A stretch of 12,292 nucleotides of DNA, taken from positions 1 to 12,292 of IMG/VR virus record IMGVR_UViG_2547132278_000008; one strand, written 5' to 3'. Positions 1 through 12,292 of the stretch are shown piece by piece. Within the stretch, counting starts at the first letter, position 1. Each line of letters opens with the position of its first letter. The DNA is from a virus (taxonomy: Duplodnaviria > Heunggongvirae > Uroviricota > Caudoviricetes). The translations under genes were made by a program, and so were the position numbers. Below the pieces are notes generated by a model. It saw only the letters and a list, made by a program, of their open reading frames with translations, did not search any database and was not told the origin of the DNA.

Positions 1-769
<769 letters not shown>

Positions 770-774
770 AACAA

Positions 775-814
775 AAGCCTGCTTTAAAGAGAGTTTGAAG
801 CAGGCTTTCTTTTA
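775..814 (+). terminator. Rho-independent terminator after the exonuclease remnant
   Basis: 10-bp stem AAGCCTGCTT (775-784) pairs with AAGCAGGCTT (799-808), followed by TCTTTT. Confidence 0.6.
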
Positions 815-929
815 AAGAACAGTCGCCTTTCAATCATTTCCTGCCTGTATTTAATACTTTTCCGCCTGATAGGTTTAGTCAAAATGCAGCCATCGAAACG
901 CAAATGTAACCAAACAGAAGGAGACTTAC

Positions 930-1739
930 ATGAGTTCGGTTGAAAATGTAATGACAAATGATGATCTGGACGAGCTGACAGCCATGTTGCAATCACTTGA
1001 TGAACCAGTAAAAAAAGCTGCACAGGTTGAAAATACTGATGATATTGACGATCTGCTGCTCGGCCTAGATGCTGGCGTAGCCATGAGTTCTGATGATGTT
1101 GCCGAAGAACTGTTCAATGAAGAAAAAGCAGGTGATTTCAGCTCTACTTTAAATGAGTTGGAGTTAGCGCATGAGCCTATAAACGTAATTAACGCTGAAA
1201 GTGTTGAAGCTGCCGAAAACGAGCCAGAACAATTGGGATTTATTGAGGTTGAAGAGTGTGTTGAGGTTAATGATGAATTAAAAGTTCAACAGTCAAATGA
1301 TAGCAATACAAATAAAAAAGCTCGTACTGCAAGAGGTCCTCGTTTTACTTTAAGTGATAAAGATGATTCGTTTTTCAATAAAGCGGGCTTAGAAAAAGAT
1401 ATTTTCTTAGACGCTTACGATAACGCGCCTGTCAAAGCAAAGGATAAGATATTAAACCTTCTTAATTGGTTTAGCGGAGGTCCAGATATTAGTGTTTACA
1501 CGGTAATTTCCATGAGACACCTTCTCACAGAAAAGAAGGCTACAAGTAATAGTATTAAGATTGCTTTAATGAGCAATCCAGAAAAACCGTATCCGCTTAA
1601 CACTGCGTCAACTCAGGCTGGGCAAATGATGGCTGTATTTCCAGCGACAGGAATTGCCGTTAGAGACGGTGGAAATCTAACATTGAACGAAGAATCACCG
1701 ATCGTTAAGAAGTTTGTCGCGGAGTACACTATTGGATGA
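930..1739 (+). CDS. Hypothetical protein with a strongly acidic N-terminal half (269 aa); candidate DNA-mimic or anti-restriction protein
   Basis: ATG at 930 with GGAG 8 nt upstream. The first ~125 residues hold roughly 35 Asp/Glu against ~4 Lys by hand count; the C-terminal half is mixed-charge. No recognised motif. Confidence 0.6.
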   Translation: MSSVENVMTNDDLDELTAMLQSLDEPVKKAAQVENTDDIDDLLLGLDAGVAMSSDDVAEELFNEEKAGDFSSTLNELELAHEPINVINAESVEAAENEPEQLGFIEVEECVEVNDELKVQQSNDSNTNKKARTARGPRFTLSDKDDSFFNKAGLEKDIFLDAYDNAPVKAKDKILNLLNWFSGGPDISVYTVISMRHLLTEKKATSNSIKIALMSNPEKPYPLNTASTQAGQMMAVFPATGIAVRDGGNLTLNEESPIVKKFVAEYTIG

Positions 1740-1815
1740 CGTTCCCCTACTTAAAATAAAGCCCATAGAGAGCTTTATAGTACTGGGTAAGCCAATCACA
1801 TACCCAGCACCACAA

Positions 1816-1864
1816 AAACGCGCCAGAGAGCTTCTCGTTTGCATTTCTGGCGCGTTTTATTTGA
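1816..1864 (+). terminator. Rho-independent terminator
   Basis: 12-bp stem AAACGCGCCAGA (1816-1827) pairs with TCTGGCGCGTTT (1846-1857), followed by TTTTATTT. Confidence 0.55.
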
Positions 1865-1922
1865 TTGCCAGACATAAAATCAAATGCAAAAATAGGTATA
1901 TACTTACCTATCGAGAAAGAAG

Positions 1923-2516
1923 ATGATTGCAGCCGAAAAAATCAAACAGCGAAAGCGCGACAACTCTCTTCGTGACCTCTGGAGAACACCTGACTGGCTG
2001 TTTTCTGCCATTCAACGTTATCTTGGAGTGACATTTGATGTTGACGTTGCCTGCAACAAGGACAATGCAAAGCTGCCTAATTTCATAGGCGTTGAGCGTG
2101 ATGCTTTGAAATCTGAATGGGGACAGCCAGGTACAATTGCCTTCCTCAATCCACCCTACTCCAAAATCTACCCCTGGATTGATGCGGCTATACGTGAGCA
2201 GGCTCGCGGAGTTACAACAGTGATGCTAATTCCTCAATCCCTAGATACAAAGTGGTATGAGCGTGCAACAGAGTGTGCGAATGAGACGATTATTCTGTCT
2301 GGTGGCCGCGTAGCGTTTGTCGAGCCTGACGTAAATCTGGGTCAGGTAGAAGTAAACATCAACCCAGGTGGCAGTATGCTCGTTGTTTTTCGAGGATTCT
2401 GTCAGGACGCTGGGCACTCTATAAGCAAGATCCCTTTGGACGTCATGAAAAGTCTGGGAGGGTATGATCCTGCGAATGTGATCAGGAAAAAAAGACCATC
2501 AAAGAAGGCTGCTTAG
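1923..2516 (+). CDS. Phage-type DNA N6-adenine methyltransferase (small Dam family, 197 aa)
   Basis: Motif IV FLNPPYS is present, and the WRTPDWLF N-terminal signature and ~200 aa size match the small phage Dam family from memory. An inverted repeat ATAGGTA...TACCTAT (1893-1912) lies just upstream of the start. Confidence 0.8.
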   Translation: MIAAEKIKQRKRDNSLRDLWRTPDWLFSAIQRYLGVTFDVDVACNKDNAKLPNFIGVERDALKSEWGQPGTIAFLNPPYSKIYPWIDAAIREQARGVTTVMLIPQSLDTKWYERATECANETIILSGGRVAFVEPDVNLGQVEVNINPGGSMLVVFRGFCQDAGHSISKIPLDVMKSLGGYDPANVIRKKRPSKKAA

Positions 2517-2537
2517 TTTGTTCTGGCGTCTGTAATT

Positions 2538-2602
2538 AGCCTGCTTCTGTATATATAAATAACCACATATTAATTATTAATATACGGAAGCAGGCTGTTT
2601 TG
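2538..2602 (+). terminator. Long-loop hairpin with T-tract (terminator-like) after the methyltransferase
   Basis: AGCCTGCTTC (2538-2547) pairs with GAAGCAGGCT (2587-2596), then GTTTTG. The loop is 39 nt and AT-rich. The stem core is the same as in the 775-808 terminator. Confidence 0.4.
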
Positions 2603-2701
2603 TATCAGAGACTCCAGACCTGAACATCACTACAGAATCCACTAGAACCCCTTCCCAGACGCTTTAAAATCGATTTTATGAACCACTTTAAGGAAACCAA
2701 C

Positions 2702-2932
2702 ATGTCATACCCGACTAATGTCGTTGCGCTCGTAGAGAGCGATTTTCTGGCCCAGGCTCGTGAAATGATGAAAGATCGTGAGCAGGCTTTCAACTTGTAC
2801 GAATGGGCAATTAAGTGCTTGCATCTTGGCGAGCATCGCGAACTTGTTGAACAGCTTTTAGGTGAGTTGATCAATGAGGTGTTTGCCTTGAATGTTCAAC
2901 TACATGGTAGAGAAAATAATCAATCACAATGA
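2702..2932 (+). CDS. Hypothetical small protein (76 aa; alternative start at 2678)
   Basis: ATG at 2702 preceded by AAGGA (2690-2694). Translation MSYPTNVVALVESDFLAQAREMMKDREQAFNLYEWAIK... has no recognised motif. Confidence 0.4.
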   Translation: MSYPTNVVALVESDFLAQAREMMKDREQAFNLYEWAIKCLHLGEHRELVEQLLGELINEVFALNVQLHGRENNQSQ

Positions 2933-3514
2933 TAGATAAGTACAAACTATTCATAAAGTGAATTGTAAGTGCTAAGATCTGATAGTTTCCAGTCGTAGAC
3001 TGGAGACTCGACCTGATGGGTGGGGGTAAGCGTCACTGGCGTCAGGTTTAAAAAAGCTCACTACCAGCGTAGAACTGGTGCCGTTTAGGTGTCGGGGAAG
3101 GGGGAACCAAAGTGAGCAGAGACAAGGGTCACTTTATGATTGTCGAGTCTGGGGTGTTTCGAGAGGTTGAATCCAGTACTCCCCTTCATAAAGTGTGGGA
3201 AGATCTCGGTTCTGGGGTGCTGTCATCCATAACTTCCCAAGTCTAAGCTGGCAGTAGACTTAGACCATAACTTTTCAGGTTATGAAACGACCAGGTTGGT
3301 GAGAGATTTTTATACTCACCTCCCTGGGAGAGTATTACCTGAAAAGACAACCTCTCACTTCGTTCGAGGTGAACTTCACTCACTTCGTTCGTTCAGTTCA
3401 GGTTTATAAAAACCTGTTCTGGGAAGTAATTTGTTTATTTTAATAATTATTAACACGCACGCGTGTGCGCACGCGCGAGGAAAAATCGGCGCGGCGCTTG
3501 ATTCAGGAGTTTAT
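2933..3514. other. ORF-free, repeat-rich and hairpin-rich intergenic region; candidate structured ncRNA, origin or regulatory hub
   Basis: No ORF of 60 aa or more on either strand. Hairpins include CCAGTC gta GACTGG (2989-3003), GGTGAG...CTCACC (3298-3320) and AGGTTT ataa AAACCT (3401-3416). Direct repeats include TCTGGGGTG at 3138-3146 and 3211-3219, and CACTTCGTTCG at 3356-3366 and 3381-3391. Confidence 0.3.
3453..3477. repeat. 25-nt perfectly alternating purine-pyrimidine tract (Z-DNA-prone) with central CACGCGTG palindrome
   Basis: ACACGCACGCGTGTGCGCACGCGCG read directly; lies about 40 bp upstream of the RNase HI start codon. Confidence 0.9.
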
Positions 3515-4105
3515 ATGACGACGAAGACACCAGCCCGATCGCAAGCAAAAACTCGCAAAAAAGACAAAAACAAAAATTCTCCCCGCACCAATCCCACAAC
3601 GCCTGTCGTAGAGTTCAATCCCCAGCTTAAAACCGTGAAAATCTTTAGTGATGGCTCTTGCCTTAAAAATCCGGGTGGCCCGGGCGGTTACGGTATCGTT
3701 CTCCAGTATCGTGGTGAGGAACGCGAGTTCTCAGATGGTTTTCATAGCACCACCAATAACCGCATGGAGATGATGGGGGCACTTATCGGGCTGGAGCGTT
3801 TGAAATATCCATGCAACGTTATTTTGCACTCTGATAGCCAGTATCTGAAAAACGGCATGACACAGTGGATGAAATGGTGGAAACGCAATGGATGGATGAC
3901 TTCTGACAAAAAACCGGTAAAGAATGTTGATCTGTGGAAGCGTCTGGATGAGGCCGCAAGTCGACATAATGTTCGCTGGAAGTGGGTTAAAGGTCACGCC
4001 GGGCATCGTGAAAATGAAATATGTGATCGACTCGCGAAGATCGCAGCTTTTTCAGCAGCAGATATGCCTCACAAGAAAGATATTGGTTTTGTTTATAACA
4101 AATAG
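3515..4105 (+). CDS. Ribonuclease HI paralog (196 aa) with a ~45-aa basic N-terminal extension
   Basis: AGGAG at 3505-3509 precedes ATG 3515. The core aligns by eye to E. coli RNase HI with all catalytic residues present: IFSDGSC (D), NNRMEMMGA (E), HSDSQY (D), [18 protein letters not shown] (H, D). The extension is Lys/Arg/Pro/Thr-rich. Confidence 0.85.
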
Positions 4106-4202
4106 TAAGTAAGTGTTTACCTATCATTTTAAATCATGTATCTTATCGGCGTCAGGATGACAATGTGTCGGTAAGACACAGTTCCAGGATGGAACGAGAA
4201 AG

Positions 4203-4224
4203 GCGGCTGGCAATCGCCAGCCGC
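4203..4224 (+). terminator. GC-rich hairpin (possible terminator or 5'UTR structure)
   Basis: GCGGCTGGC aatc GCCAGCCGC forms a 9-bp stem; the downstream tail CTCTTTCT is only weakly U-rich. Confidence 0.35.
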
Positions 4225-4253
4225 AACTCTTTCTGACACTGGATGGAGTCCAC

Positions 4254-4748
4254 ATGGCACGTCAAACCTATTTCACTTCTGTAACTAAACGTCCTCGTTC
4301 TTTACGTCAAATTTTGGCCGAATTATTTAGCGGTCGTGTTATGTCACGTCTTGATGAACTAGAGACTACCGTTCGGTTGCTGAATGAACGTTTAGATAAT
4401 CAAGCGTCAGTTGTTGCGAACGTGGGGGCGATTGTTGCCTCTGGTTCTTCACGCGAAGCGAAAAGTACACGGCCTTTAGTGAAGGAGAAAAACAACAAGG
4501 ACAGTTCGAATGGAAAATTTTCAAAGAAAGAGGCTGAAACCAATGGCCTACGTTCTCATTATAGTTTCACTGGCGACGGTAGCCGTTCCAGCCGGCCAGA
4601 GCCTTTTGATGCCGGGTTCATCCATCACCACACCTCCGTCGACGACAATTACCACCACTCCAGTAGAGCGTCCTGTCACTCTGGATGGGATGACGGTGGA
4701 TGCGATACCTCAAGTTCATCCGGTTACTCAGGATCATGCTGTGACTAA
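4254..4748 (+). CDS. Hypothetical protein; N-terminal ~85 aa look coding, C-terminal part is doubtful (overlapped by a +1 frame ORF)
   Basis: GGAG at 4245-4248 precedes ATG 4254. The N-terminus is coiled-coil-like, but after about residue 90 the translation becomes Ser/His/Cys/Gly-rich low complexity. Confidence 0.35.
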   Translation: MARQTYFTSVTKRPRSLRQILAELFSGRVMSRLDELETTVRLLNERLDNQASVVANVGAIVASGSSREAKSTRPLVKEKNNKDSSNGKFSKKEAETNGLRSHYSFTGDGSRSSRPEPFDAGFIHHHTSVDDNYHHSSRASCHSGWDDGGCDTSSSSGYSGSCCD

Positions 4749-4761
4749 GGCGGTTGTATGA
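4510..4761 (+). CDS. Small putative secreted or membrane-anchored Thr/Pro-rich protein (83 aa)
   Basis: AAGGA at 4496-4500 precedes ATG 4510. It has a signal-peptide-like N-terminus (MENFQRKRLKPMAYVLIIVSLATVAVPAGQS) and a TTPPSTTITTTP tract, and its stop overlaps the next start as ATGA. Confidence 0.4.
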   Translation: MENFQRKRLKPMAYVLIIVSLATVAVPAGQSLLMPGSSITTPPSTTITTTPVERPVTLDGMTVDAIPQVHPVTQDHAVTKAVV

Positions 4762-4946
4762 ACTGGTTTTCAAATCACTTTGGAAAAATTTGGCTGGCAA
4801 TTCTTGCCCTCATGGCCGCCGGTTGGGTATCGAACATTATAAAACTTGTTTGCTCTGGCGATCTCCAGTTTCAGGCTGGCATGACCTTGGCTCGTGTAGT
4901 TGGGATTTTTGTTTTTCCAGTCGGTTCGGTACTTGGTTATTTCTGA
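4758..4946 (+). CDS. Small membrane protein (62 aa, two predicted transmembrane helices)
   Basis: ATG 4758 overlaps the preceding stop (ATGA). Hydrophobic segments IWLAILALMAAGWV and VVGIFVFPVGSVLGYF. Confidence 0.45.
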   Translation: MNWFSNHFGKIWLAILALMAAGWVSNIIKLVCSGDLQFQAGMTLARVVGIFVFPVGSVLGYF

Positions 4947-5001
4947 CGGCTGTTAGTGCATATGCATTGACCATCTTTGCGTAAGCAATTTATGTAATTA
5001 G

Positions 5002-5020
5002 AAAACAACTTGTTTTGACA
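5002..5020. promoter_or_regulatory. Perfect palindromic operator-like site AAAACAA-C-TTGTTTT overlapping a consensus TTGACA hexamer
   Basis: Read directly at 5002-5016; TTGACA at 5015-5020. Sits 23 nt upstream of ATG 5040. A possible -35/-10 pair (TTGACC 4967-4972, TATGTA 4991-4996) lies upstream, but the promoter assignment is uncertain. Confidence 0.45.
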
Positions 5021-5039
5021 AATAATAAAAGGAAAACAC

Positions 5040-5465
5040 ATGTTAGGTTTCTTCAAAAAGAAAACTCGTAAAGCTGTTATCGAAGTCAAAAAAATGGAGA
5101 ACCGTGATGCGGTTGAGGCCACCGTGTGGGGCGCGTACATGATCTCCTATGCCGACGGCACATGTGACGCAAAAGAAATTGCCATTCTTGAGAAGACAAT
5201 TGCAGCTCTGCCTGCGTTTTCTCCGTTTGCTGGTGAAATTGCCCAAATGAGCGCCAATATCCGTGCTCGTTACGAAGCGTCCCCTCGTTCTGCTAATGCA
5301 CAGGCTATTCGTGAGCTGTCTGATATTGCGGGTACTCCAGAGGCGGTCGATGTTCTGTGTCTGTGCCTTGATATTGCCGATCAGGACGGCATTGGTGAAC
5401 AAGAAGAGCAGGCACTGAAAAAGATCGCCCAGGCGCTTCAGTTGTCACTGGATGCTTATCTCTAA
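5040..5465 (+). CDS. TerB-like (tellurite-resistance TerB family) protein, 141 aa
   Basis: AAGGA at 5029-5033 precedes ATG 5040. Two TerB-type repeats with acidic Asp-Gly motifs (ISYADGTCDAKEIAILEK and CLDIADQDGIGEQEEQALKKI) match the TerB architecture from memory. Confidence 0.7.
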   Translation: MLGFFKKKTRKAVIEVKKMENRDAVEATVWGAYMISYADGTCDAKEIAILEKTIAALPAFSPFAGEIAQMSANIRARYEASPRSANAQAIRELSDIAGTPEAVDVLCLCLDIADQDGIGEQEEQALKKIAQALQLSLDAYL

Positions 5466-5623
5466 TGCTTGAGAGATTCCGGCTTGTGATCGTCATTGCT
5501 CTTCTGGTGATGGCGGTGTTGGTGGATTTTACGGGAAAGATGATGTCTGTCATTTCTGATGGCGTCCTCATTGGTTTGGCGATCTACTTCGCTTATCCGT
5601 TAGTTCGTAAAGCAAAGTGTTAA
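5465..5623 (+). CDS. Unannotated small membrane protein (52 aa), translationally coupled to the TerB-like gene
   Basis: TAATG stop/start overlap at 5463-5467. Hand translation gives MLERFRLVIVIALLVMAVLVDFTGKMMSVISDGVLIGLAIYFAYPLVRKAKC with two hydrophobic segments. It is below the 60-aa threshold of the ORF track. Confidence 0.5.
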   Translation: MLERFRLVIVIALLVMAVLVDFTGKMMSVISDGVLIGLAIYFAYPLVRKAKC

Positions 5624-5625
5624 TG

Positions 5626-5653
5626 ACAAGGGCCATTTGGCCCTTGTGTTTCG
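5626..5653 (+). terminator. Rho-independent terminator after the TerB-like/membrane pair
   Basis: ACAAGGGCC attt GGCCCTTGT forms a 9-bp stem, then GTTTCG. Confidence 0.5.
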
Positions 5654-5730
5654 TTGACCGAAATAGAGAGTTTGCACCTTTACGTTTAGCTTGCTCCCCT
5701 TTTATGCCACATCACAATAAAGCCAATAAG

Positions 5731-5745
5731 AAAACAACTTGTTTA
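5731..5745. promoter_or_regulatory. Second copy of the operator-like palindrome (AAAACAACTTGTTTA)
   Basis: Matches the 5002-5016 site at 14 of 15 positions within a shared AGAAAACAACTTGTTT context; sits 17 nt upstream of ATG 5763. Confidence 0.45.
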
Positions 5746-5762
5746 AGCATTAAGGAAAACAC

Positions 5763-6329
5763 ATGTGCGAGAAATGCAAAGCAATAGCTGATGAACAAAA
5801 CGCCCTATTCGAAGAAATGGATGCTAATGAACTTGTCAAAATGTTAGGCATTGTTCGGGGAACAGAAGACGTTTCTATATTTGAGAGACTGTTTACAGTA
5901 CTTAATTTTAATTCCACCTTTGAAGAGCCAACTCAGGTTGTAGCTTTGGCACACCATTTCGGTGTTCATTATCTTGCCGAAAAAGAGCGCGCTAATAAGT
6001 TGCAGGCGACTTTGGATATGGTGAGCGAGACTCAAGGAACCCATGACGGTAACAATAGTGAGACGATTATTGCCAGCAAAGATCGTGAAATTGCCGGACT
6101 TAAGTCTTCTCTAACGATGTTGATGTCTGCAATCAATCTTATGTCTTCTAAAGCGGGATATAAAATGCCATCACTAAACAGTGACGATCCAATGGCCGTT
6201 CGCCAGCTTTTGGGAGCAATGGCCGACCAGCTTGATGATACGAAAAGTCGGCTTGAAGACATGATGCGGGAGCTTACGCATCGCCACGACTTGAATAAGC
6301 AACCGCACAAAACGCAATACGCACTCTAA
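5763..6329 (+). CDS. Hypothetical protein (188 aa)
   Basis: AAGGA at 5752-5756 precedes ATG 5763. No recognised motif. The gene has its own operator-like site upstream and a terminator downstream. Confidence 0.6.
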   Translation: MCEKCKAIADEQNALFEEMDANELVKMLGIVRGTEDVSIFERLFTVLNFNSTFEEPTQVVALAHHFGVHYLAEKERANKLQATLDMVSETQGTHDGNNSETIIASKDREIAGLKSSLTMLMSAINLMSSKAGYKMPSLNSDDPMAVRQLLGAMADQLDDTKSRLEDMMRELTHRHDLNKQPHKTQYAL

Positions 6330-6346
6330 TACTGCACCAGTCGACA

Positions 6347-6368
6347 GGGGGCGAAAGCCCCCATTTTT
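6347..6368 (+). terminator. Rho-independent terminator with GAAA tetraloop
   Basis: GGGGGC gaaa GCCCCC followed by ATTTTT. Confidence 0.7.
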
Positions 6369-6427
6369 ACGCCTTAAATCTGCTGTAACGCCTATGAATG
6401 CAGCTTTTATGCCTTTTTAAGTTTGCG

Positions 6428-6472
6428 ATAATTACACCAATCAGAAAACAAATTATTTAATGGTGTAATTAT
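6428..6472. promoter_or_regulatory. 12-bp perfect inverted repeat embracing a degenerate operator motif and the start codon of the 6471 gene
   Basis: ATAATTACACCA (6428-6439) pairs with TGGTGTAATTAT (6461-6472). The 21-nt spacer holds AAAACAAaTTATTTA (6445-6459), and the A and T of ATG 6471 lie inside the right arm. Confidence 0.45.
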
Positions 6473-8156
6473 GAATACAGCCCTTTCCATCATCGACGAT
6501 GCCAGCTCAAACACGGCTATCGACTATCGTCAGGAAATGAATGTCATCCACGAAATCGTGGCCGAGTGCGAGAAAGAGATCGCCTTCATGTATCAGGTAC
6601 ACGACTTCGTTTATGGCGACGAACGCCACAACATGATTAATCGCCTGCTGAGACTAAACCATCGACCAGATGAAGATCGCTCGCGTTTAAATCGAGGTTG
6701 GTTGGATAAAGTCGATCTGGAATGGGTGAAACAGAATATTTGGGCCGAGTACTGGAGGAAGGTCACGGACATGACTAACGTTTTGCTGATCATGCCAGCT
6801 TCCCGTCGAGATGAGTGGCGCGAGCAGTTTATAGAGGGCAAACAGGAAGTCATCAAAACTGACAGAACCGGCTGCCAGATGAAGGTTAAAGAGTTCGTTG
6901 GTGTACCGGAGTTCAAAGCAGAAACGGTCATACCCACGATGCTTAATTTGCTGAATGACAGGCACAAATATCTCTCTGAGCGCGTGTATGGCTTGTTTAA
7001 GGCGCTGAGTCCTGCGCACAAGACAAATAAGACAAACGGTTTCAGCGAGCGTCTGATAATCGCTGACTGCATTTCTGATTTCTGGCGGGACAGCGTTAGC
7101 GTGAACTATCGCAAAGAGGACTACATCGACGATCTGCGTGTCTTGCTTCATTTCTTCGCGCACAAAGAATTTATTACCATCAACCGCACTGCTGAGGTGC
7201 TATCAGCTGCGTATCGGGCAAACGACTGCCAGACCGGTGACTGGATGAACGTCGATGGAAATCTGATGCGCGTGAAGATGTTCAAGAACGGCAACGTTCA
7301 CTTTGAAATACATCCTGACGTGGCCTGGAAGTTGAATGAGGTGCTGGCTTACAGTATGCCTGCTGCAATCCCCGCGCCATGCCGAACTGCGCCAAAAACA
7401 CGGGCACCAAAGCAGTTCGGGTTAATCCAGAAGACGATCTCCGTGCCGGTTCGCACTGCGCTTCGTGACGGGCGATTGAGCAAAGACAAAGGCGTATGGT
7501 ACTTCTCTGATTCAGCTCTCCAGAAGTCGCAGGTGGAAGAGCTTGAGCGCACACTGAGCTTCATTGGCGGCGTGCAGGAGAAAAAGCACTGGCAGTTCCC
7601 GTATGACATCGGCCATACGCTAAATACGATTGTGGCTACCGGTTTAATACCGGATACAAAATCACACCAGTTCTACCCTACCCCACGCTTGATTGCTGAG
7701 TACGTTGCAAGAGCCACTGAATTGAAGCCTGGTGAGAAGCTGTTGGAGCCTCAAGCCGGACGTGGGGATCTTCTGGCCTATATAAACGCCGATCTGGAAG
7801 ATGTTACCTGCATAGAAATCGCACCTCTCTTCGCTGATATCCTGCGTGGAAAAGGGTATACGAACACGATTTGCTGCGACTTCATAAAGTGGTCTGAGGA
7901 CAACGCAGGTTATCAGTTCGACAAAATCGTTATGAACCCGCCGTACTCGCTTGGTCGTCATAGAGAGCACACGCTGGCTGCGCTGGGGCATCTGAAAGTC
8001 GGCGGGCGTCTTGTAGCAGTATTGCCGGGCACTGCGCCAATACTGGACTGGATGACGATGGATAATTACGTTTATGCCAGAGGGAAGTCGTTTACCAACG
8101 AGTTTGAAGACACAGGGATCACAGTCAGCGTATACGTTTTCAAACGCGTTAAATGA
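6471..8156 (+). CDS. Large protein (561 aa): N-terminal ~400 aa of unknown function fused to a C-terminal N6-adenine methyltransferase domain
   Basis: A motif I-like segment (LLEPQAGRGDLLAYI) and motif IV (VMNPPYS) sit in the last ~150 residues. The N-terminal region has no motif I recognise. Confidence 0.75.
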   Translation: MNTALSIIDDASSNTAIDYRQEMNVIHEIVAECEKEIAFMYQVHDFVYGDERHNMINRLLRLNHRPDEDRSRLNRGWLDKVDLEWVKQNIWAEYWRKVTDMTNVLLIMPASRRDEWREQFIEGKQEVIKTDRTGCQMKVKEFVGVPEFKAETVIPTMLNLLNDRHKYLSERVYGLFKALSPAHKTNKTNGFSERLIIADCISDFWRDSVSVNYRKEDYIDDLRVLLHFFAHKEFITINRTAEVLSAAYRANDCQTGDWMNVDGNLMRVKMFKNGNVHFEIHPDVAWKLNEVLAYSMPAAIPAPCRTAPKTRAPKQFGLIQKTISVPVRTALRDGRLSKDKGVWYFSDSALQKSQVEELERTLSFIGGVQEKKHWQFPYDIGHTLNTIVATGLIPDTKSHQFYPTPRLIAEYVARATELKPGEKLLEPQAGRGDLLAYINADLEDVTCIEIAPLFADILRGKGYTNTICCDFIKWSEDNAGYQFDKIVMNPPYSLGRHREHTLAALGHLKVGGRLVAVLPGTAPILDWMTMDNYVYARGKSFTNEFEDTGITVSVYVFKRVK

Positions 8157-8217
8157 TAGGTAAATACTTACTTAATTTATGTAAGAATGTAGTTACTAAA
8201 CGATAAGAGAAAAACAC

Positions 8218-8922
8218 ATGAGCAACCTCCAGTTAGAGCATTTTAACGTCACAGGCCATTCCGATTTTCCTTTCAAGTTTACATTGAAAGGTTATGCAGA
8301 GGATGCGGTAGGCCAGATCATTATTGATAAAGGCATCGTTAAGTTTGAGGGGAATTTTGATGAATCCGCGAAAACATTCATAGACTTCGTTGCCAAACGT
8401 TGGAGCGAGCAATGGAAAGACCTGGAAAAGCGCGCTAGTGAGTTTGATCGGTTCATGGATGCAATGGATACAGCAAAAGAGGCTCTTGCTGCCGGGACTC
8501 CGTTAGATCTGGAGTCACTTTTCAACGGCGAAGTGGCCTCTGCGATGTTCGCCACCATGTTCGCGGGTGAGTTCGTCCGCAGCGGTGCCAAAAACTACCT
8601 TGAGCTGGATTACAACGTCCCTGCAATTGGCGATTTCGTCGTTACCATCCAACGCAAAGAAGGTAAGACGCCAGGTGAACGCGTCGCAGAGCTTGAGGCC
8701 GTTGTGGATCAGCGTAACGGAGAGTGTGACCGTTTGATCAACGAGCTTCATGCACTTCGGGAAGAAAGAATATGCGCGGGTAGTAATACACGTAATGCAG
8801 CGGATATCTACTTCCAGTTAGTTGAGGAATGCCAGATTCCACCAGGTGGCTCTCTTGTCGATTACGTCAGACATTTAATGGCGGAAGTTAACTCCAGCCA
8901 TAAAGATGGTGAGGTGCGCTGA
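8218..8922 (+). CDS. Hypothetical protein (234 aa), downstream of the methyltransferase fusion with no intervening terminator
   Basis: Leader ...AAGAGAAAAACACATG. Long ORF with a clean shadow pattern; no recognised motif. Confidence 0.6.
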   Translation: MSNLQLEHFNVTGHSDFPFKFTLKGYAEDAVGQIIIDKGIVKFEGNFDESAKTFIDFVAKRWSEQWKDLEKRASEFDRFMDAMDTAKEALAAGTPLDLESLFNGEVASAMFATMFAGEFVRSGAKNYLELDYNVPAIGDFVVTIQRKEGKTPGERVAELEAVVDQRNGECDRLINELHALREERICAGSNTRNAADIYFQLVEECQIPPGGSLVDYVRHLMAEVNSSHKDGEVR

Positions 8923-9302
8923 TGTTTGGCATTGATGCACAGCGTATAGCAGCTTTTGCAAAAAGTCCTCTTGATAATCCCTTGTCTCGTAGTGAGCAAA
9001 TGGCGCTGGCAAGGCTTTTTCTTCACATTCAAAAACAGGCAGACGTTTTCAATAACATGCCTGATCAACCTATTCTGGATGGTCACATCCAGATGGTCAT
9101 TAACAGTCATGAGAAAGGCTGGGCTGCAATCGTCCCCTGCACAATTACATACAAGTTGGCGAAAGAGGTTCAAGAGTTTCGAAAAGTCAGCGTCGAATCA
9201 GAGTCTACCAAAGCCGCAATAAACACTCTTATTCGCATGGGGTTCACATGGGACGGTGGAGCTTACTGGCAAGCACCTCAACCCATTTTATCCGACAATT
9301 AG
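8922..9302 (+). CDS. Hypothetical protein (126 aa), translationally coupled to the 8218 gene
   Basis: TGATG stop/start overlap at 8920-8924. No recognised motif. Confidence 0.55.
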   Translation: MFGIDAQRIAAFAKSPLDNPLSRSEQMALARLFLHIQKQADVFNNMPDQPILDGHIQMVINSHEKGWAAIVPCTITYKLAKEVQEFRKVSVESESTKAAINTLIRMGFTWDGGAYWQAPQPILSDN

Positions 9303-9332
9303 GCGCTACAAATCCTTCTGCATGAATAAATA

Positions 9333-9367
9333 AAGGCCATAAGTTATGGCCTTAAATAAATTGTTTT
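9333..9367 (+). terminator. Hairpin with downstream T-tract (terminator-like); tail carries a degenerate operator half-site
   Basis: AAGGCCATAA g TTATGGCCTT (9333-9353), then AAATAAATTGTTTT (9354-9367). Confidence 0.45.
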
Positions 9368-9440
9368 CTACCTTTTCTTATTTGTGAAAATAAACCAGCA
9401 CTTGGTAGTGCTTATGTAACAGCAAAGAAGAGAAAAACAC

Positions 9441-9941
9441 ATGAGTAACAAAATCGAAAATCCCGTAGTTCTCATTCACAAGCGCGAGAACCACGACTCC
9501 TATGCGGTGGCGATCACCAATGGGAGTCACGATTTTTACGATGGCCTGCTAATGGCCTCAGTGTCGCCTGATGAGGCAGACAACTCTTTTGCCGTCTTCG
9601 CTATGGTTGGTTACTACATGGCTGCCGAAATTGAGAAGTTGCGGGCGCAAAGAGACGCATTAGCGGCGGAGAATGCAGCCCTGAAAGAATCTGAGCGAGC
9701 ATTCGATGCGATGTGTGCCGAGGAACACGGAGATAATTGGGTTAGCGAATTAACGGAGACTCCAGCCACCGATACTTTTCTGGCTGAAGTACGTGCGCAG
9801 GGCGTGGATATGGCTCGTAACGCGATGATTGATTTTGTTGATGGTGAAGTTGGGCCAAACAAGAACGTTCCGGGGCTGATTAGAGGCGCAGAGATATGCG
9901 TAAGTATTGCTGAACAGCTTCGTAAAGGAGTCATCCAGTGA
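9441..9941 (+). CDS. Hypothetical phage protein (166 aa), first gene of a six-gene coupled operon
   Basis: Leader ...GAAGAGAAAAACACATG. Contains a coiled-coil-like AEIEKLRAQRDALAAENAALKE segment. Confidence 0.6.
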   Translation: MSNKIENPVVLIHKRENHDSYAVAITNGSHDFYDGLLMASVSPDEADNSFAVFAMVGYYMAAEIEKLRAQRDALAAENAALKESERAFDAMCAEEHGDNWVSELTETPATDTFLAEVRAQGVDMARNAMIDFVDGEVGPNKNVPGLIRGAEICVSIAEQLRKGVIQ

Positions 9942-10405
9942 GCAAGATTGACTATCAGGCACTGCGTGAAAAGGCAGAGAAAGCAACGTGTGGTAAGTGG
10001 TCGCTCGAATATGGAGAGAGCCGATTTGATGGTGATGATGCGCTAATTCATCGTGAAGTTGCTGGATATATTCCTATTTGCAGAATTGAAGGAGCGCATC
10101 CTGAAAGCGGTTTCGATGAAGATTTCCAGATGGAACAGCAGGCCAATGCTGAATTCATCGCCGCAGCCAGTCCAGCTACCGTGCTGGCACTACTGGATGA
10201 GATCAACGCATTAGAGGAAACGCGTATCAACGATGTTTGCCGTATTGCGGAACTAACAAAACAACTGGAGTTGGCAAAATCAAAACTCAACGAGCAGCGT
10301 GAGTATTACGAGGGCGTTATCTCGGATGGAAGTAAGCGCATAGCCGCTCTTCTTCGCAAGGACAATCTTGCCAGCGCCACGAACATTGAAGGTGAAAGAA
10401 AATGA
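9938..10405 (+). CDS. Ead/Ea22-like phage protein (155 aa)
   Basis: GTG start with AAGGAG at 9925-9930; GTGA overlap with the upstream stop. The N-terminal [18 protein letters not shown] and later [23 protein letters not shown] resemble lambdoid Ea22-like proteins from memory. Confidence 0.6.
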
Positions 10406-10725
10406 CCACATCGCACTCTGCTATTACCCAAGAAAAAGCCTTCAACATACTCGAACGACTAGAGACGCTCGCTACGGAGGAGGATATATCCCCGGAGAAA
10501 CTGGTTGAGTTCAGCCGTGTGATATTGCGTCGCAAGAACGATATGGAGCGGCTGACATCTGGCGCTCCATCCTTATCAGTCAGGCGAACACTTTGTTGCA
10601 GCTTCTGCAACAAATCCCAGTACGCCGTCAAAAAGTTAATTGCTGGGGACGCCGTTTTCATCTGCGACGAGTGTGTGGATGTGTGCAACAGAATTATCCG
10701 GGGAGAGAAAGAGGGATCAGCATGA
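10402..10725 (+). CDS. Small protein with a C-terminal ClpX-type C4 zinc-finger domain (107 aa)
   Basis: ATGA overlap at 10402-10405. [35 protein letters not shown] aligns closely to the ClpX N-terminal zinc-binding domain ([34 protein letters not shown]). Confidence 0.65.
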
Positions 10726-11252
10726 AATTTTCCAAATTTTCTGAGTTGGTGAATCGTATTTTGTCCAACAACCACAGCCATCGTCGCGATATGGATGTAA
10801 CGATCGTTGTTCATTCGCCTGGTCGCATCGGTTCAACACCATCAGTTGAGGTTCAGTCAATTCAGGCGGGTTTTGATTGGGATGCCGGGCAAGTGATGAT
10901 TTTTCCAGCACAGCCACTGACCACGCTAACACCAGAGCAGGTTGCTGATATCACTGATAGTGTGCGCAAAGGTCAGTCTTGGCACGCGTATCAGGAATAC
11001 AAGAAGCATAAAGAGCAGTTGGAAAAATTGTCGATGGAGTTGGAAGCCGCTAAACAGCGGGAAAAAGATCTGTTTATGGAAAATGTTCGACTTAAGTCAG
11101 GTATAGCCGGTCTGATACACCTCGGTATTCGATATGCGGATGTTGAGGTCATGAAAATTGCTGGAGATGCCCAGCTTTCTACTCCATGCACTGACAGCAT
11201 CATAAACAGCATTGCAGCAGGCATTTTCACCAAAGAGGGGGCAGCACGATGA
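10722..11252 (+). CDS. Hypothetical protein (176 aa)
   Basis: ATG 10722 overlaps the upstream stop (ATGA), with GAGGG 6 nt upstream. The track ORF 10593..11252 is an in-frame 5' extension that overlaps the previous gene. Confidence 0.55.
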
Positions 11253-11434
11253 GAACACTAGAGGTTCGCGCTGAAGACGTAATCCCTGGTGATGTGCTCA
11301 TAACATCTAAAGGTCAACAATGTGCGGTTAAATCTTTTTGGATGGAAAATGACAAAGTGACTCTGTTCGGTACGGATGGTTCCGAAACTGATTATGACTA
11401 CGACGAATTGCTTGTTGTTGAGAGAGCTGCCTAA
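11249..11434 (+). CDS. Hypothetical small protein (61 aa)
   Basis: ATGA overlap at 11249-11252 with AGAGGGGG upstream. Confidence 0.45.
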   Translation: MRTLEVRAEDVIPGDVLITSKGQQCAVKSFWMENDKVTLFGTDGSETDYDYDELLVVERAA

Positions 11435-11940
11435 TGACCACCGTTAACAATAAGAAATGCTACCCAAGCGAGAAATATCTTAATGAGCTGATCACCAACA
11501 TTGAGTTTGCTGCAAGGGCACCAGTTGAAGTCGTGAGAGCGATTGCAGCAGAGCTACAGAAGCACCGTAAGGCCTATGCCAATACAGCCGCATCTAAGGA
11601 TGGTTGGATAAGCTGTAGTGAGCGAATGCCTGTAATTGGCGAGCTAAATTGGAGAACTAGTTTTCCTTTACTGGTTATGTGTGAGATCGGCGTTATACCT
11701 GCTTATTACGGCTTTGTGAGCGTTAATGGTGATAGGCATTATGGCTTTATGGAGAGTCTTAAATACGGAGACGATAACGGCAACCATCCTCAAACTAATG
11801 AATATGGTCTGATTAGCAATGTCACACACTGGATGCCACTACCAGAACGCCGCAGGAGTCGAACAGTGAATAATGCAGAGTTATTTCAGAAAATATGTAA
11901 GCGTCAACGGAGCACCGTATTGACGCTTATTTATTGGTGA
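11434..11940 (+). CDS. DUF551-like phage protein; last ~14 codons and stop are supplied by the inserted IS66 terminus (3'-disrupted)
   Basis: TAATG overlap at 11432-11436. GWISCSERMP and THWMPLPE motifs are typical of DUF551 from memory. The IS-like terminus begins at 11897, inside the ORF. Confidence 0.55.
   Translation: MTTVNNKKCYPSEKYLNELITNIEFAARAPVEVVRAIAAELQKHRKAYANTAASKDGWISCSERMPVIGELNWRTSFPLLVMCEIGVIPAYYGFVSVNGDRHYGFMESLKYGDDNGNHPQTNEYGLISNVTHWMPLPERRRSRTVNNAELFQKICKRQRSTVLTLIYW
11897..11929. repeat. Terminal inverted repeat of the IS66-family element (starts GTAAGCG), containing an internal 9-bp palindrome
   Basis: GTAAGCGTCAACGGAGCACCGTATTGACGCTTA; IS66-family ends typically begin 5'-GTAA. 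Internal arms AAGCGTCAA and TTGACGCTT. Confidence 0.55.
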
Positions 11941-12292
11941 GTACTACGTTCCATGGCAGGAGTTCGTCAACACGGTTGGAGGGCCATTCCGGCAGTACGC
12001 TCAGAATATGGCGCAGATACGCTTCCGGATCGATACCGTTCAGTCGGCAGGTGCCGATCAGCCCGTACAGCAGTGCTCCACGCTCGCCGCCGTGATCGCT
12101 ACCGAAGAACACGTAATTTTTCTTTCCGAGACAGACTGCACGAAGCGCTCTTTCCGCTGTGTTATTGTCCACCTCCGCCAGACCGTCATCACTGTAATAA
12201 CAGAGGGCGTCCCACTGATTCAGTACATAGCTGAACGCTTCGCCCAGTCTGGATTTTTTCGACAGCGTGCCATTCTTCTCCACCATCCATTC
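11927..12292 (-). CDS. IS66-family transposase (TnpC-like), C-terminal part; 5' end outside window
   Basis: The - strand translation ...NNTAERALRAVCLGKKNYVFFGSDHGGERGALLYGLIGTCRLNGIDPEAYLRHILSVLPEWPSNRVDELLPWNVVLTNK matches the conserved IS66 transposase C-terminus from memory. Confidence 0.8.
   Translation of the reverse strand, partial: EWMVEKNGTLSKKSRLGEAFSYVLNQWDALCYYSDDGLAEVDNNTAERALRAVCLGKKNYVFFGSDHGGERGALLYGLIGTCRLNGIDPEAYLRHILSVLPEWPSNRVDELLPWNVVLTNK

Follow-up and report, generated by a model that had tools for sequence, protein, structure and literature searches.

A putative orphan adenine methylase of the DUF4942 family and its changing neighbours on an SSU5-type phage-plasmid of Escherichia coli

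The window analysed here, i.e. the stretch of 12,292 nucleotides (nt) from position 1 to 12,292 of the IMG/VR virus record IMGVR_UViG_2547132278_000008, contains a unit of three co-oriented genes (6428-9367) that encode proteins of 561, 234 and 126 amino acids (aa). We consider it likely that the 561-aa protein is an orphan DNA adenine methylase which protects the DNA of its element from restriction in new hosts, with its DUF4942 portion as the recognition part and the two downstream genes as passengers. Judged from DNA identity and gene order, the element is an SSU5/pHCM2-type phage-plasmid of E. coli. A preceding sequence-only reading of the window had proposed a three-gene defence or anti-defence module. 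An anti-restriction (anti-defence) role is what appears most plausible for the methylase, whereas the three-gene system is not borne out. The genes, taken from the list of open reading frames (ORFs), and the two parts of the methylase are:

6471-8156, + strand: methyltransferase gene of the DUF4942 type, 561 aa
6471-7655, + strand: N-terminal module of this protein (residues 1-395, including DUF4942 at 144-295), proposed DNA-binding and target-recognition part
7656-8153, + strand: C-terminal gamma-class amino-methyltransferase domain, with motif X (QFYPTP, 400-405), motif I (EPQAGRG, 426-432) and motif IV (NPPY, 489-492)
8218-8922, + strand: gene of an acidic mosaic protein with Ead/Ea22-like modules, 234 aa
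8922-9302, + strand: ORFan gene, 126 aa

Family and catalytic domain of the 561-aa protein

By its profile matches the 561-aa protein is a member of a methylase family that is already catalogued (Pfam DUF4942, PHROG 6263, SSU5 gp095), so that the earlier candidacy as an undescribed system is not supported. A PHROG profile search assigned the entire chain (residues 1-561) to phrog_6263, 'DNA methyltransferase', with an E-value of 3.9e-299. The sole Pfam match was DUF4942 (PF13708; residues 144-295, E 2e-20, 73.7 bits vs. a cut-off of 25). The family member gp095 of phage SSU5 is likewise annotated as a DNA methyltransferase, and a search of the protein database found 369 homologues of the 561-aa protein, most of them encoded on contigs of 100-113 kb.

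Motifs and profiles confirmed that an N6-adenine methyltransferase domain is fused to an uncharacterised N-terminal region, as had been noticed from the sequence alone. The motif order X-I-IV is that of gamma-class N6-adenine DNA methyltransferases. Across 29 aligned homologues, down to 33% identity, QFYP.P (400-405), P.AG (427-430) and NPP (489-491) are invariant; the same alignment holds about 38 invariant positions between W95 and P394. When the PDB was searched by sequence with the family profile, TaqI, another adenine DNA methyltransferase and the HsdM subunit of EcoR124 came out best; TaqI itself is matched only marginally, with an E-value of 0.098 when the single sequence is used and 5.8e-4 with the profile. 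In the structural model the catalytic domain adopts the class I Rossmann methyltransferase fold and is superposable on solved members, and every top match of a fold search with the whole model lay within this Rossmann domain. Given these matches and the motif order, we infer that the substrate of the enzyme is DNA.

No target-recognition domain follows the catalytic domain, as the chain ends about 70 residues after NPPY. Searches of the window with Pfam and PADLOC profiles revealed no recognisable endonuclease, HsdS or HsdR, in agreement with the earlier statement that no restriction endonuclease is recognisable. In PADLOC, the match of the 561-aa protein is restricted to residues ~394-523 (Type II methylase and mad2 models; mad2 E 1.1e-15). 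A known PADLOC defence system, e.g. MADS via mad2, was considered and rejected, since the methylase domain alone is matched and the 234-aa and 126-aa proteins have no match.

The N-terminal DUF4942 module

The sequence-only reading had described a fusion of ~400 aa of unrecognised sequence to a methylase. Residues 80-335 alone were searched against 1.84 billion representative sequences, which gave 619 matches. In the best 150 of these, the median chain length is 536 aa and the module occupies about residues 80-320. Among the best matches, 136 are full-length, and NPP[FYW] is present downstream of the module in 133/136 and EPxAGxG in 125/136; the majority form of motif IV in the family is NPPF (112/136). 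All of ten sampled relatives match DUF4942 (10/10), and half of them (5/10) also match MTS. Module and methylase are thus, as far as these matches reach, one protein family of fixed architecture, and the fusion is the norm of the family.

No known recognition domain was matched by the N-terminal module. Since the chain ends with the catalytic domain, it is this module that would have to supply DNA binding and target choice. Structure prediction models the N-terminal 395 aa well.

Element, relatives and spread of the methylase

A region of 3.1 kb around the locus matched 240 E. coli records, and all matched places (252/252) are on plasmids, none on a chromosome. The best matches, at 98.8% DNA identity over 3.1 kb, are plasmids of ~107-113 kb. 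The Escherichia phages Cyrano (= pLF82), PhiR41_1 and CMS-2020a share the DNA of the locus at 97-98% identity and Salmonella phage SSU5 at 88%, while in Klebsiella phage-plasmids the DNA match is limited to the first gene, that of the methylase. The window is collinear with phages SSU5 and Cyrano. The gene order is of the SSU5 type: thymidylate synthase, dihydrofolate reductase, exonuclease, phage Dam, RNase HI, TerB/TciA-like, the locus, Ead/Ea22-like genes and an S24 peptidase. Since all matches lie on plasmids and the gene order is that of SSU5, what had been called a prophage-like island is an extrachromosomal prophage, a phage-plasmid rather than an island. In one close relative, a DfrA51 gene is located near the locus. 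The window contains a further methylase gene:

1923-2516: phage Dam-type adenine methyltransferase gene (PF05869, E 2.9e-38)

The phage-plasmid thus encodes at least two orphan methylases, one of the DUF4942 and one of the Dam type.

Relatives of the 561-aa protein with at least 60% identity are found on SSU5-like elements of Escherichia, Salmonella, Klebsiella, Enterobacter, Citrobacter, Cronobacter and Kluyvera; at this threshold, 844 PLSDB plasmids carry the methylase. At 45-50% identity, relatives are encoded on phage-plasmids of ~100-110 kb in Xenorhabdus, Providencia, Moellerella and Morganella, and full-length relatives with 31-36% identity occur in tailed phages of Pseudomonas, Aeromonas, Vibrio and Marinomonas. 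In lambdoid prophages, relatives lie between replication genes and nin-type genes, beside other DNA methylases. In total, 2534 PLSDB plasmids have a relative of the methylase; 1360 of them are conjugative, including large IncHI2 plasmids. For example, on the IncHI2 plasmid pMRGN207 (locus L010, 4351-8635) a DUF4942 methylase gene is found near the RepHI2 replication genes, with a 387-aa gene directly upstream and a Dam-family methylase on the opposite strand.

Clustering of the neighbours at 85 diverse loci (2117 ORFs in 1657 clusters) yielded no cluster that is common beyond one plasmid lineage. The clusters that do recur, in at most ten loci, are confined to the IncHI2-type lineage, namely the Dam gene and the upstream 387-aa gene. 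At these 85 loci, we detected neither a conserved endonuclease nor any other conserved partner gene near the methylase, and it is this lack of a conserved neighbour and of a restriction enzyme that makes the protein an orphan methylase. A 126-aa ORF located two genes downstream of the methylase in Variovorax turned out to be unrelated to the 126-aa protein of the window. Wide spread combined with turnover of the neighbours is the signature expected of a portable orphan methylase. Remnants of the methylase, comprising residues 1-157 or 1-62 only, are common and occur in some otherwise similar plasmids (phrog_16000, phrog_25525); the methylase is therefore dispensable for plasmid maintenance.

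Co-occurrence of the three genes

Adjacency of the two small genes was scored at 85 loci with enough flanking sequence, binned by the identity of their methylase to that of the window:

Identity at least 95% (n = 29): 234-aa gene adjacent in 27, 126-aa gene in 27, both in 27
Identity 80-95% (n = 32): 234-aa gene adjacent in 25, 126-aa gene in 10, both in 9
Identity 60-80% (n = 13): 234-aa gene adjacent in 1, 126-aa gene in 1, both in 1
Identity below 60% (n = 11): 234-aa gene adjacent in 0, 126-aa gene in 0, both in 0

Conservation of the gene neighbourhood, on which the proposal of one system was to be judged, is therefore seen in the immediate lineage and is lost outside it, where the three genes do not occur together. 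In PLSDB the plasmid counts are nested, with 2534 for the methylase, 607 for the 234-aa and 282 for the 126-aa gene. Among the 85 diverse genomic loci, both small genes are absent from the 82 that are not SSU5-like. Since all co-occurrence falls within one collinear element family, it is not independent evidence for one system.

Exchange of the small genes can be followed at individual loci. Two loci (L020 and L075) are ~97.5% identical to the window in DNA through the methylase gene (98-99% in protein); homology ends at window position 8272, after which unrelated genes of 99 and 162 aa replace both small genes. At two others (L058 and L060), homology is lost at 8183-8188, just past the end of the methylase gene, and returns at 9323-9393, with a different 123-aa gene in between; the resuming stretch 9323-9393 is kept at 82-85% identity where this gene replaces the 234/126-aa pair. 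Different gene contents between conserved junctions indicate that the position after the methylase is a cassette slot.

The 234-aa and 126-aa proteins

Profile searches in Pfam, NCBIfam, PADLOC and the PDB gave no match for either small protein. This agrees with their earlier description as unrecognised, apart from local Ead/Ea22-like homology in the 234-aa protein. The latter belongs to PHROG 8364, a group of unknown function. Residues 11-101 of the protein fall into phrog_3451, and a PF13935 Ead/Ea22 protein matches residues 84-160 with 54% identity; residues 156-229 are 45% identical to hkaG of HK620 and resemble other Ead/Ea22-like or DUF551/Eaa proteins. The homology to PF13935 is local only (54% identity is also given for the longer span 32-160), with no Pfam match even at E <= 5. 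By these alignments, Ead/Ea22-like modules are assembled as a mosaic in the 234-aa protein. The curators of Cyrano labelled it 'Ead-Ea22 protein', and the 126-aa protein 'Eaa-like'. For the 126-aa protein, a narrow ORFan, a set of 5.8 billion proteins contains only 16 clusters; at full length it is restricted to SSU5-like plasmids of Escherichia and Shigella, and in Salmonella, Enterobacter and Citrobacter only residues 1-93 are found.

The 234-aa gene stands at the head of an array that continues after the unit with genes for a PF13935 protein (9938-10405), a ClpX-zinc-finger protein and a DUF551 protein. The leader AAGAGAAAAACACATGAG is common to the 234-aa and 166-aa genes. A near-identical ribosome-binding leader, (A/G)GA(G/A)AAAACACATG, precedes four genes (8205-8226, 9428-9449, 5753-5774 and before the ATG at 5040) and resembles a standard junction between cassettes of a gene mosaic.

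Boundary and control signals

The signals that delimit and precede the unit are the following:

6347-6368, + strand: intrinsic terminator of the upstream unit with the 188-aa gene, GGGGGCGAAAGCCCCC followed by ATTTTT
6424-6432, + strand: candidate extended -10 element TGCGATAAT (TGn + GATAAT), read from the sequence
6428-6472, + strand: 12-bp inverted repeat, arms 6428-6439 and 6461-6472 (-12.2 kcal/mol, z -4.57, 0/200 shuffles as stable)
6444-6460, + strand: near-palindrome GAAAACAAnTTnTTTAA (core AAACAAnTTGTTT), candidate operator, 11 nt before the methylase start codon
5001-5017, 5730-5746 and 9352-9368, with a weaker one at 4837-4853: further copies of the palindrome
9333-9353, + strand: 9-bp hairpin (-12.1 kcal/mol, z -2.6) that ends the unit and is at the same time the conserved junction on the right of the cassette slot
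9352-9391, + strand: promoter-like cassette of the next gene (ATG at 9441), outside the unit, consisting of the palindrome copy 9352-9368 and CCTTTT...TGTGAAAAT

The ORFs, the terminator and the end hairpin were all located where the description of a signal-bounded, co-oriented three-gene unit had placed them. The terminator has six G-C pairs, a GAAA loop and a run of five T residues (RNA fold -14.8 kcal/mol, z -3.25) and is kept in SSU5 and in the Klebsiella relative pJN2-26. No T run directly follows the end hairpin on the + strand, and no significant structure is predicted in the 61 nt between the methylase and the 234-aa gene (z -0.11). At the junction of the small genes, the TGA of the first (8920-8922) and the ATG of the second (8922-8924) overlap as TGATG, with GAGGTG 7 nt upstream, so that translational coupling of the 126-aa to the 234-aa gene is plausible, as had been suggested.

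A scan for sigma-70 consensus sequences reported no promoter upstream of the methylase gene; it missed the candidate extended -10 because a good -35 is lacking. TGnnA(T/A)AAT is present at the extended -10 position in most of 31 distinct upstream sequences of the family; TGnGATAAT is the putative extended -10 promoter element of the methylase gene. The family layout is GCCTTTT...TTTGnGATAAT...CACCAAnAAGAAAACAAnTTGTTTAA-TGGTG...ATG; in other lineages, an arrangement matching that of the segment 9352-9391 precedes the methylase gene.

If transcribed, the 12-bp inverted repeat would sequester the GGTG Shine-Dalgarno sequence and the AUG of the methylase gene. Over the 31 upstream sequences, 75.5% of the cells are paired, compared with 22-48% in slid controls. 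Only E. coli lineages have the full repeat; in most lineages the two pairs at its centre do not form. In the Cyrano lineage the pairing is kept by one double change from A-U to G-C, which probably arose once. A conserved RNA switch was rejected on these grounds, i.e. partial conservation, a single compensatory change and broken central pairs.

The near-palindrome occurs five times in the window, compared with 0.13 copies expected. Its core lies before the TerB-like, 188-aa and methylase genes and after the 126-aa gene. It is kept before the methylase gene across the family and is found at equivalent places in SSU5, pJN2-26 and Cyrano. In Cyrano (L171/L172) we counted 16 copies vs. ~0.6 expected, of which 13 are located just upstream of start codons, mostly at a distance of 11-73 nt; the genes preceded by it include parA, a helicase gene, cobT and the ribonucleotide reductase (RNR) beta gene, to which a tciA-like gene is added when the window and Cyrano are taken together. 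Because the palindrome is scattered before many genes of the element, regulation through it would be shared and not private to the unit. The inverted repeat of the supposed own control region is real, and it is the privacy of this control that has to be given up. Probably the palindrome is the operator of an element-encoded regulator and the copy at the methylase gene one site of a dispersed regulon. In Cyrano, candidates for this regulator are CYRAN_45, a putative repressor, and CYRAN_114, a regulator. The operators of the C1 repressor of phage-plasmid P1 are asymmetric 17-mers dispersed on that element. Both motifs are short and stand before many scattered phage-plasmid genes, including those for maintenance and DNA metabolism; the motif of the window differs in being a 13-bp palindrome.

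Proposed function and alternatives

According to our proposal, the C-terminal 165 residues would form a minimal gamma-class amino-methyltransferase that binds S-adenosylmethionine via EPQAGRG and accommodates the flipped adenine at NPPY. The always-attached DUF4942 module (~residues 80-395) would supply DNA binding and the choice of sequence, no C-terminal target-recognition domain being present. Methylation of the DNA of the element, together with that of the host, would let the element, whether arriving as a phage or as a plasmid, evade restriction in a new host. The promoter-like element of the gene and the shared palindromic, operator-like site suggest control by one regulator encoded by the element. 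The 234-aa and 126-aa genes would be co-transcribed passengers that the methylase does not need.

Several observations speak against this proposal. A Dam-type methylase is encoded on the same element, next to which a second enzyme would need a specific benefit of its own. The fold search with the N-terminal module matched no solved fold, and none of the known DNA-binding folds was convincing. The 234-aa gene is adjacent in 52/61 loci with a methylase of at least 80% identity (E. coli, Salmonella and Klebsiella lineages), and a lineage-specific functional link is conceivable. Finally, the searchable literature contains no methylation data for the DUF4942 methylase family; work on DUF4942, SSU5 methylases and phage-plasmid methylomes offered passing mentions only, with no motif or activity for a DUF4942 methylase.

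That the methylase and the two small proteins constitute one undescribed defence or anti-defence system is, in our view, very unlikely. The common orientation between terminator and hairpin, the unstructured 61-nt gap, the TGATG overlap and the joint presence of the genes in 27/29 of the closest loci (with the 234-aa gene still adjacent in 25/32 at 80-95%) would all suit such a system. Against it, this co-occurrence is limited to one collinear element family and collapses with divergence: the small genes are missing in 12/13 loci at 60-80% identity, in all 11 below 60% (0/11) and in the 82 loci that are not SSU5-like, and even ~97.5%-identical methylase loci do without both. In addition, the 234-aa protein shares its modules with Ead/Ea22-like proteins and neither small protein matches PADLOC. 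The distribution, with its nested PLSDB counts, largely refutes the idea. Still less probable is a single-chain restriction-modification enzyme resembling Type IIG/IIL, in which DUF4942 would be the nuclease of an element-borne defence gene. GenBank depositors did label the homologues of phages Dolphis, Jeremy and ST4 'RE endonuclease', the invariant polar residues D262, H277, H281 and N289 fall on a predicted strand-strand-helix element, and PADLOC returned a weak REase_MTase_IIG match (E 1.2e-3). This match, however, spans the methylase part only (residues 456-521), sequence searches of Pfam, NCBIfam and the PDB found no nuclease family, and the depositors' labels are an unsupported annotation.

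Since the fold alone cannot separate DNA from RNA enzymes, methylation of RNA (rRNA or tRNA) or protein, e.g. to reprogramme translation during phage growth, was kept as an alternative, although a quite unlikely one. Relatives match PF05175 (MTS), there are weak NCBIfam matches to Erm and KsgA, and the NPPF variant that prevails in the family also occurs in RNA amino-methyltransferases. On the other hand, the solved proteins nearest by profile, i.e. TaqI, the adenine-specific DNA methyltransferase and HsdM, are DNA enzymes, DNA-methylase models of PHROG and PADLOC match, and homologues adjoin other DNA methylases in prophage replication regions. In gamma-class DNA amino-methyltransferases motif X precedes motif I, and QFYPTP has this placement here. 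An unlikely variant is that the DUF4942 module, which matches no solved fold and is joined to a minimal methylase in hundreds of phage and plasmid lineages, represents a new type of DNA-recognition module or carries a second activity (non-specific or single-strand methylation, a nuclease or an inhibitor), which the 234-aa and 126-aa proteins may modulate in the E. coli lineage. Also unlikely, and compatible with protection from restriction, is a role that is internal in the first place (timing of replication, packaging or gene expression, as for Dam in P1), with escape from restriction being secondary. The gene resides within a long co-oriented region of DNA metabolism and replication (RNR, ThyX, exonuclease, Dam, RNase H). 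SSU5-like elements have widely kept it (the 844 PLSDB plasmids mentioned above), and apparently it is under the dispersed palindrome that also precedes parA, the helicase gene and the RNR beta gene. Yet the remnants in similar plasmids mark it as dispensable for maintenance, and the occurrence of the family on unrelated phages and conjugative plasmids with differing replication and packaging fits portable anti-restriction better.

Comparison with known systems

In M.TaqI, M.BseCI, CamA and Type I HsdM, the target-recognition domain is C-terminal or resides on a separate HsdS, whereas the protein of the window has its 395-residue N-terminal module first and the catalytic domain last. Compared with Type IIG/IIL enzymes (MmeI, Eco57I type), it is half as long; neither a PD-(D/E)XK nor any other nuclease domain was detected, and both a helical connector and a C-terminal recognition domain are missing. 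An adjacent, co-conserved endonuclease or specificity gene, as expected for Type I or Type II restriction-modification, was found neither in the window nor at the 85 diverse loci.

The proposed role resembles that of M.EcoGIX and M.BceJIII, beta-class enzymes with a DPPY motif that are orphan methylases of conjugative plasmids (Fomenkov et al. 2020, PMC7736820). Like these and the Dam-type enzymes of phages, the DUF4942 protein stands alone on a mobile element as an m6A-type methylase that lacks a cognate endonuclease and has a proposed anti-restriction role, and its relatives, too, are common on conjugative plasmids. The likeness is functional and not familial, since the window protein is of the gamma type with NPPY; homology, which a relative named YdiA as in IncI plasmids had led us to suspect, was rejected for the beta-class DPPY motif of these enzymes. 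Single-strand specificity and PolI dependence are traits of M.EcoGIX and M.BceJIII. The phage Dam enzyme at 1923-2516 belongs to a family different from both.

With the Ead/Ea22-like early proteins of lambdoid phages (PF13935; ea region of P22 and HK620), the 234-aa protein shares two modules and the setting of an acidic mosaic array. It differs from them in staying below the Pfam threshold and in having its N-terminal third in another PHROG (3451).

Other features of the window

A G-rich, gene-free stretch of ~580 nt (2933-3515) lies directly 5' of the RNase HI gene. With a minimum free energy of -162.8 kcal/mol (z -4.37) it is strongly structured, and it is kept at 88-92% identity in Salmonella and Klebsiella phage-plasmids; Rfam and tRNA searches of it gave no match. 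This stretch could be a structured RNA or an RNA-primed origin, and the analogy to RNAII and RNase H of ColE1 is speculation. Immediately before the RNase HI start, a palindromic, alternating purine-pyrimidine tract (3440-3480, CACGCACGCGTGTGCGCACGCGCG) could adopt the Z-DNA form. The right-hand end of the window (11897-12292) is the end of an IS66-family element, with a minus-strand ORF (11927-12286) that matches PF03050 and PF13817 and with GTAAGCG at about 11897. This element truncates the DUF551 gene (11434-11940) at its 3' end, since at other loci the match to the DUF551 protein extends only to residue 154.

Implications

If our proposal is correct, the 561-aa protein is one more orphan methylase that aids widespread phage-plasmids across restriction barriers, and SSU5-type elements can carry resistance genes. 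What is left of novelty is the fold of the N-terminal module and the dispersed palindrome. As the methylase family is very common (the 2534 PLSDB plasmids, many phages and the IncHI2 resistance plasmids), the practical value is modest; a single methylome would nevertheless annotate thousands of genes and could explain differences in host range. The dispersed palindrome is maybe the more useful lead, as it could define the regulon of the regulator of SSU5-type prophages.

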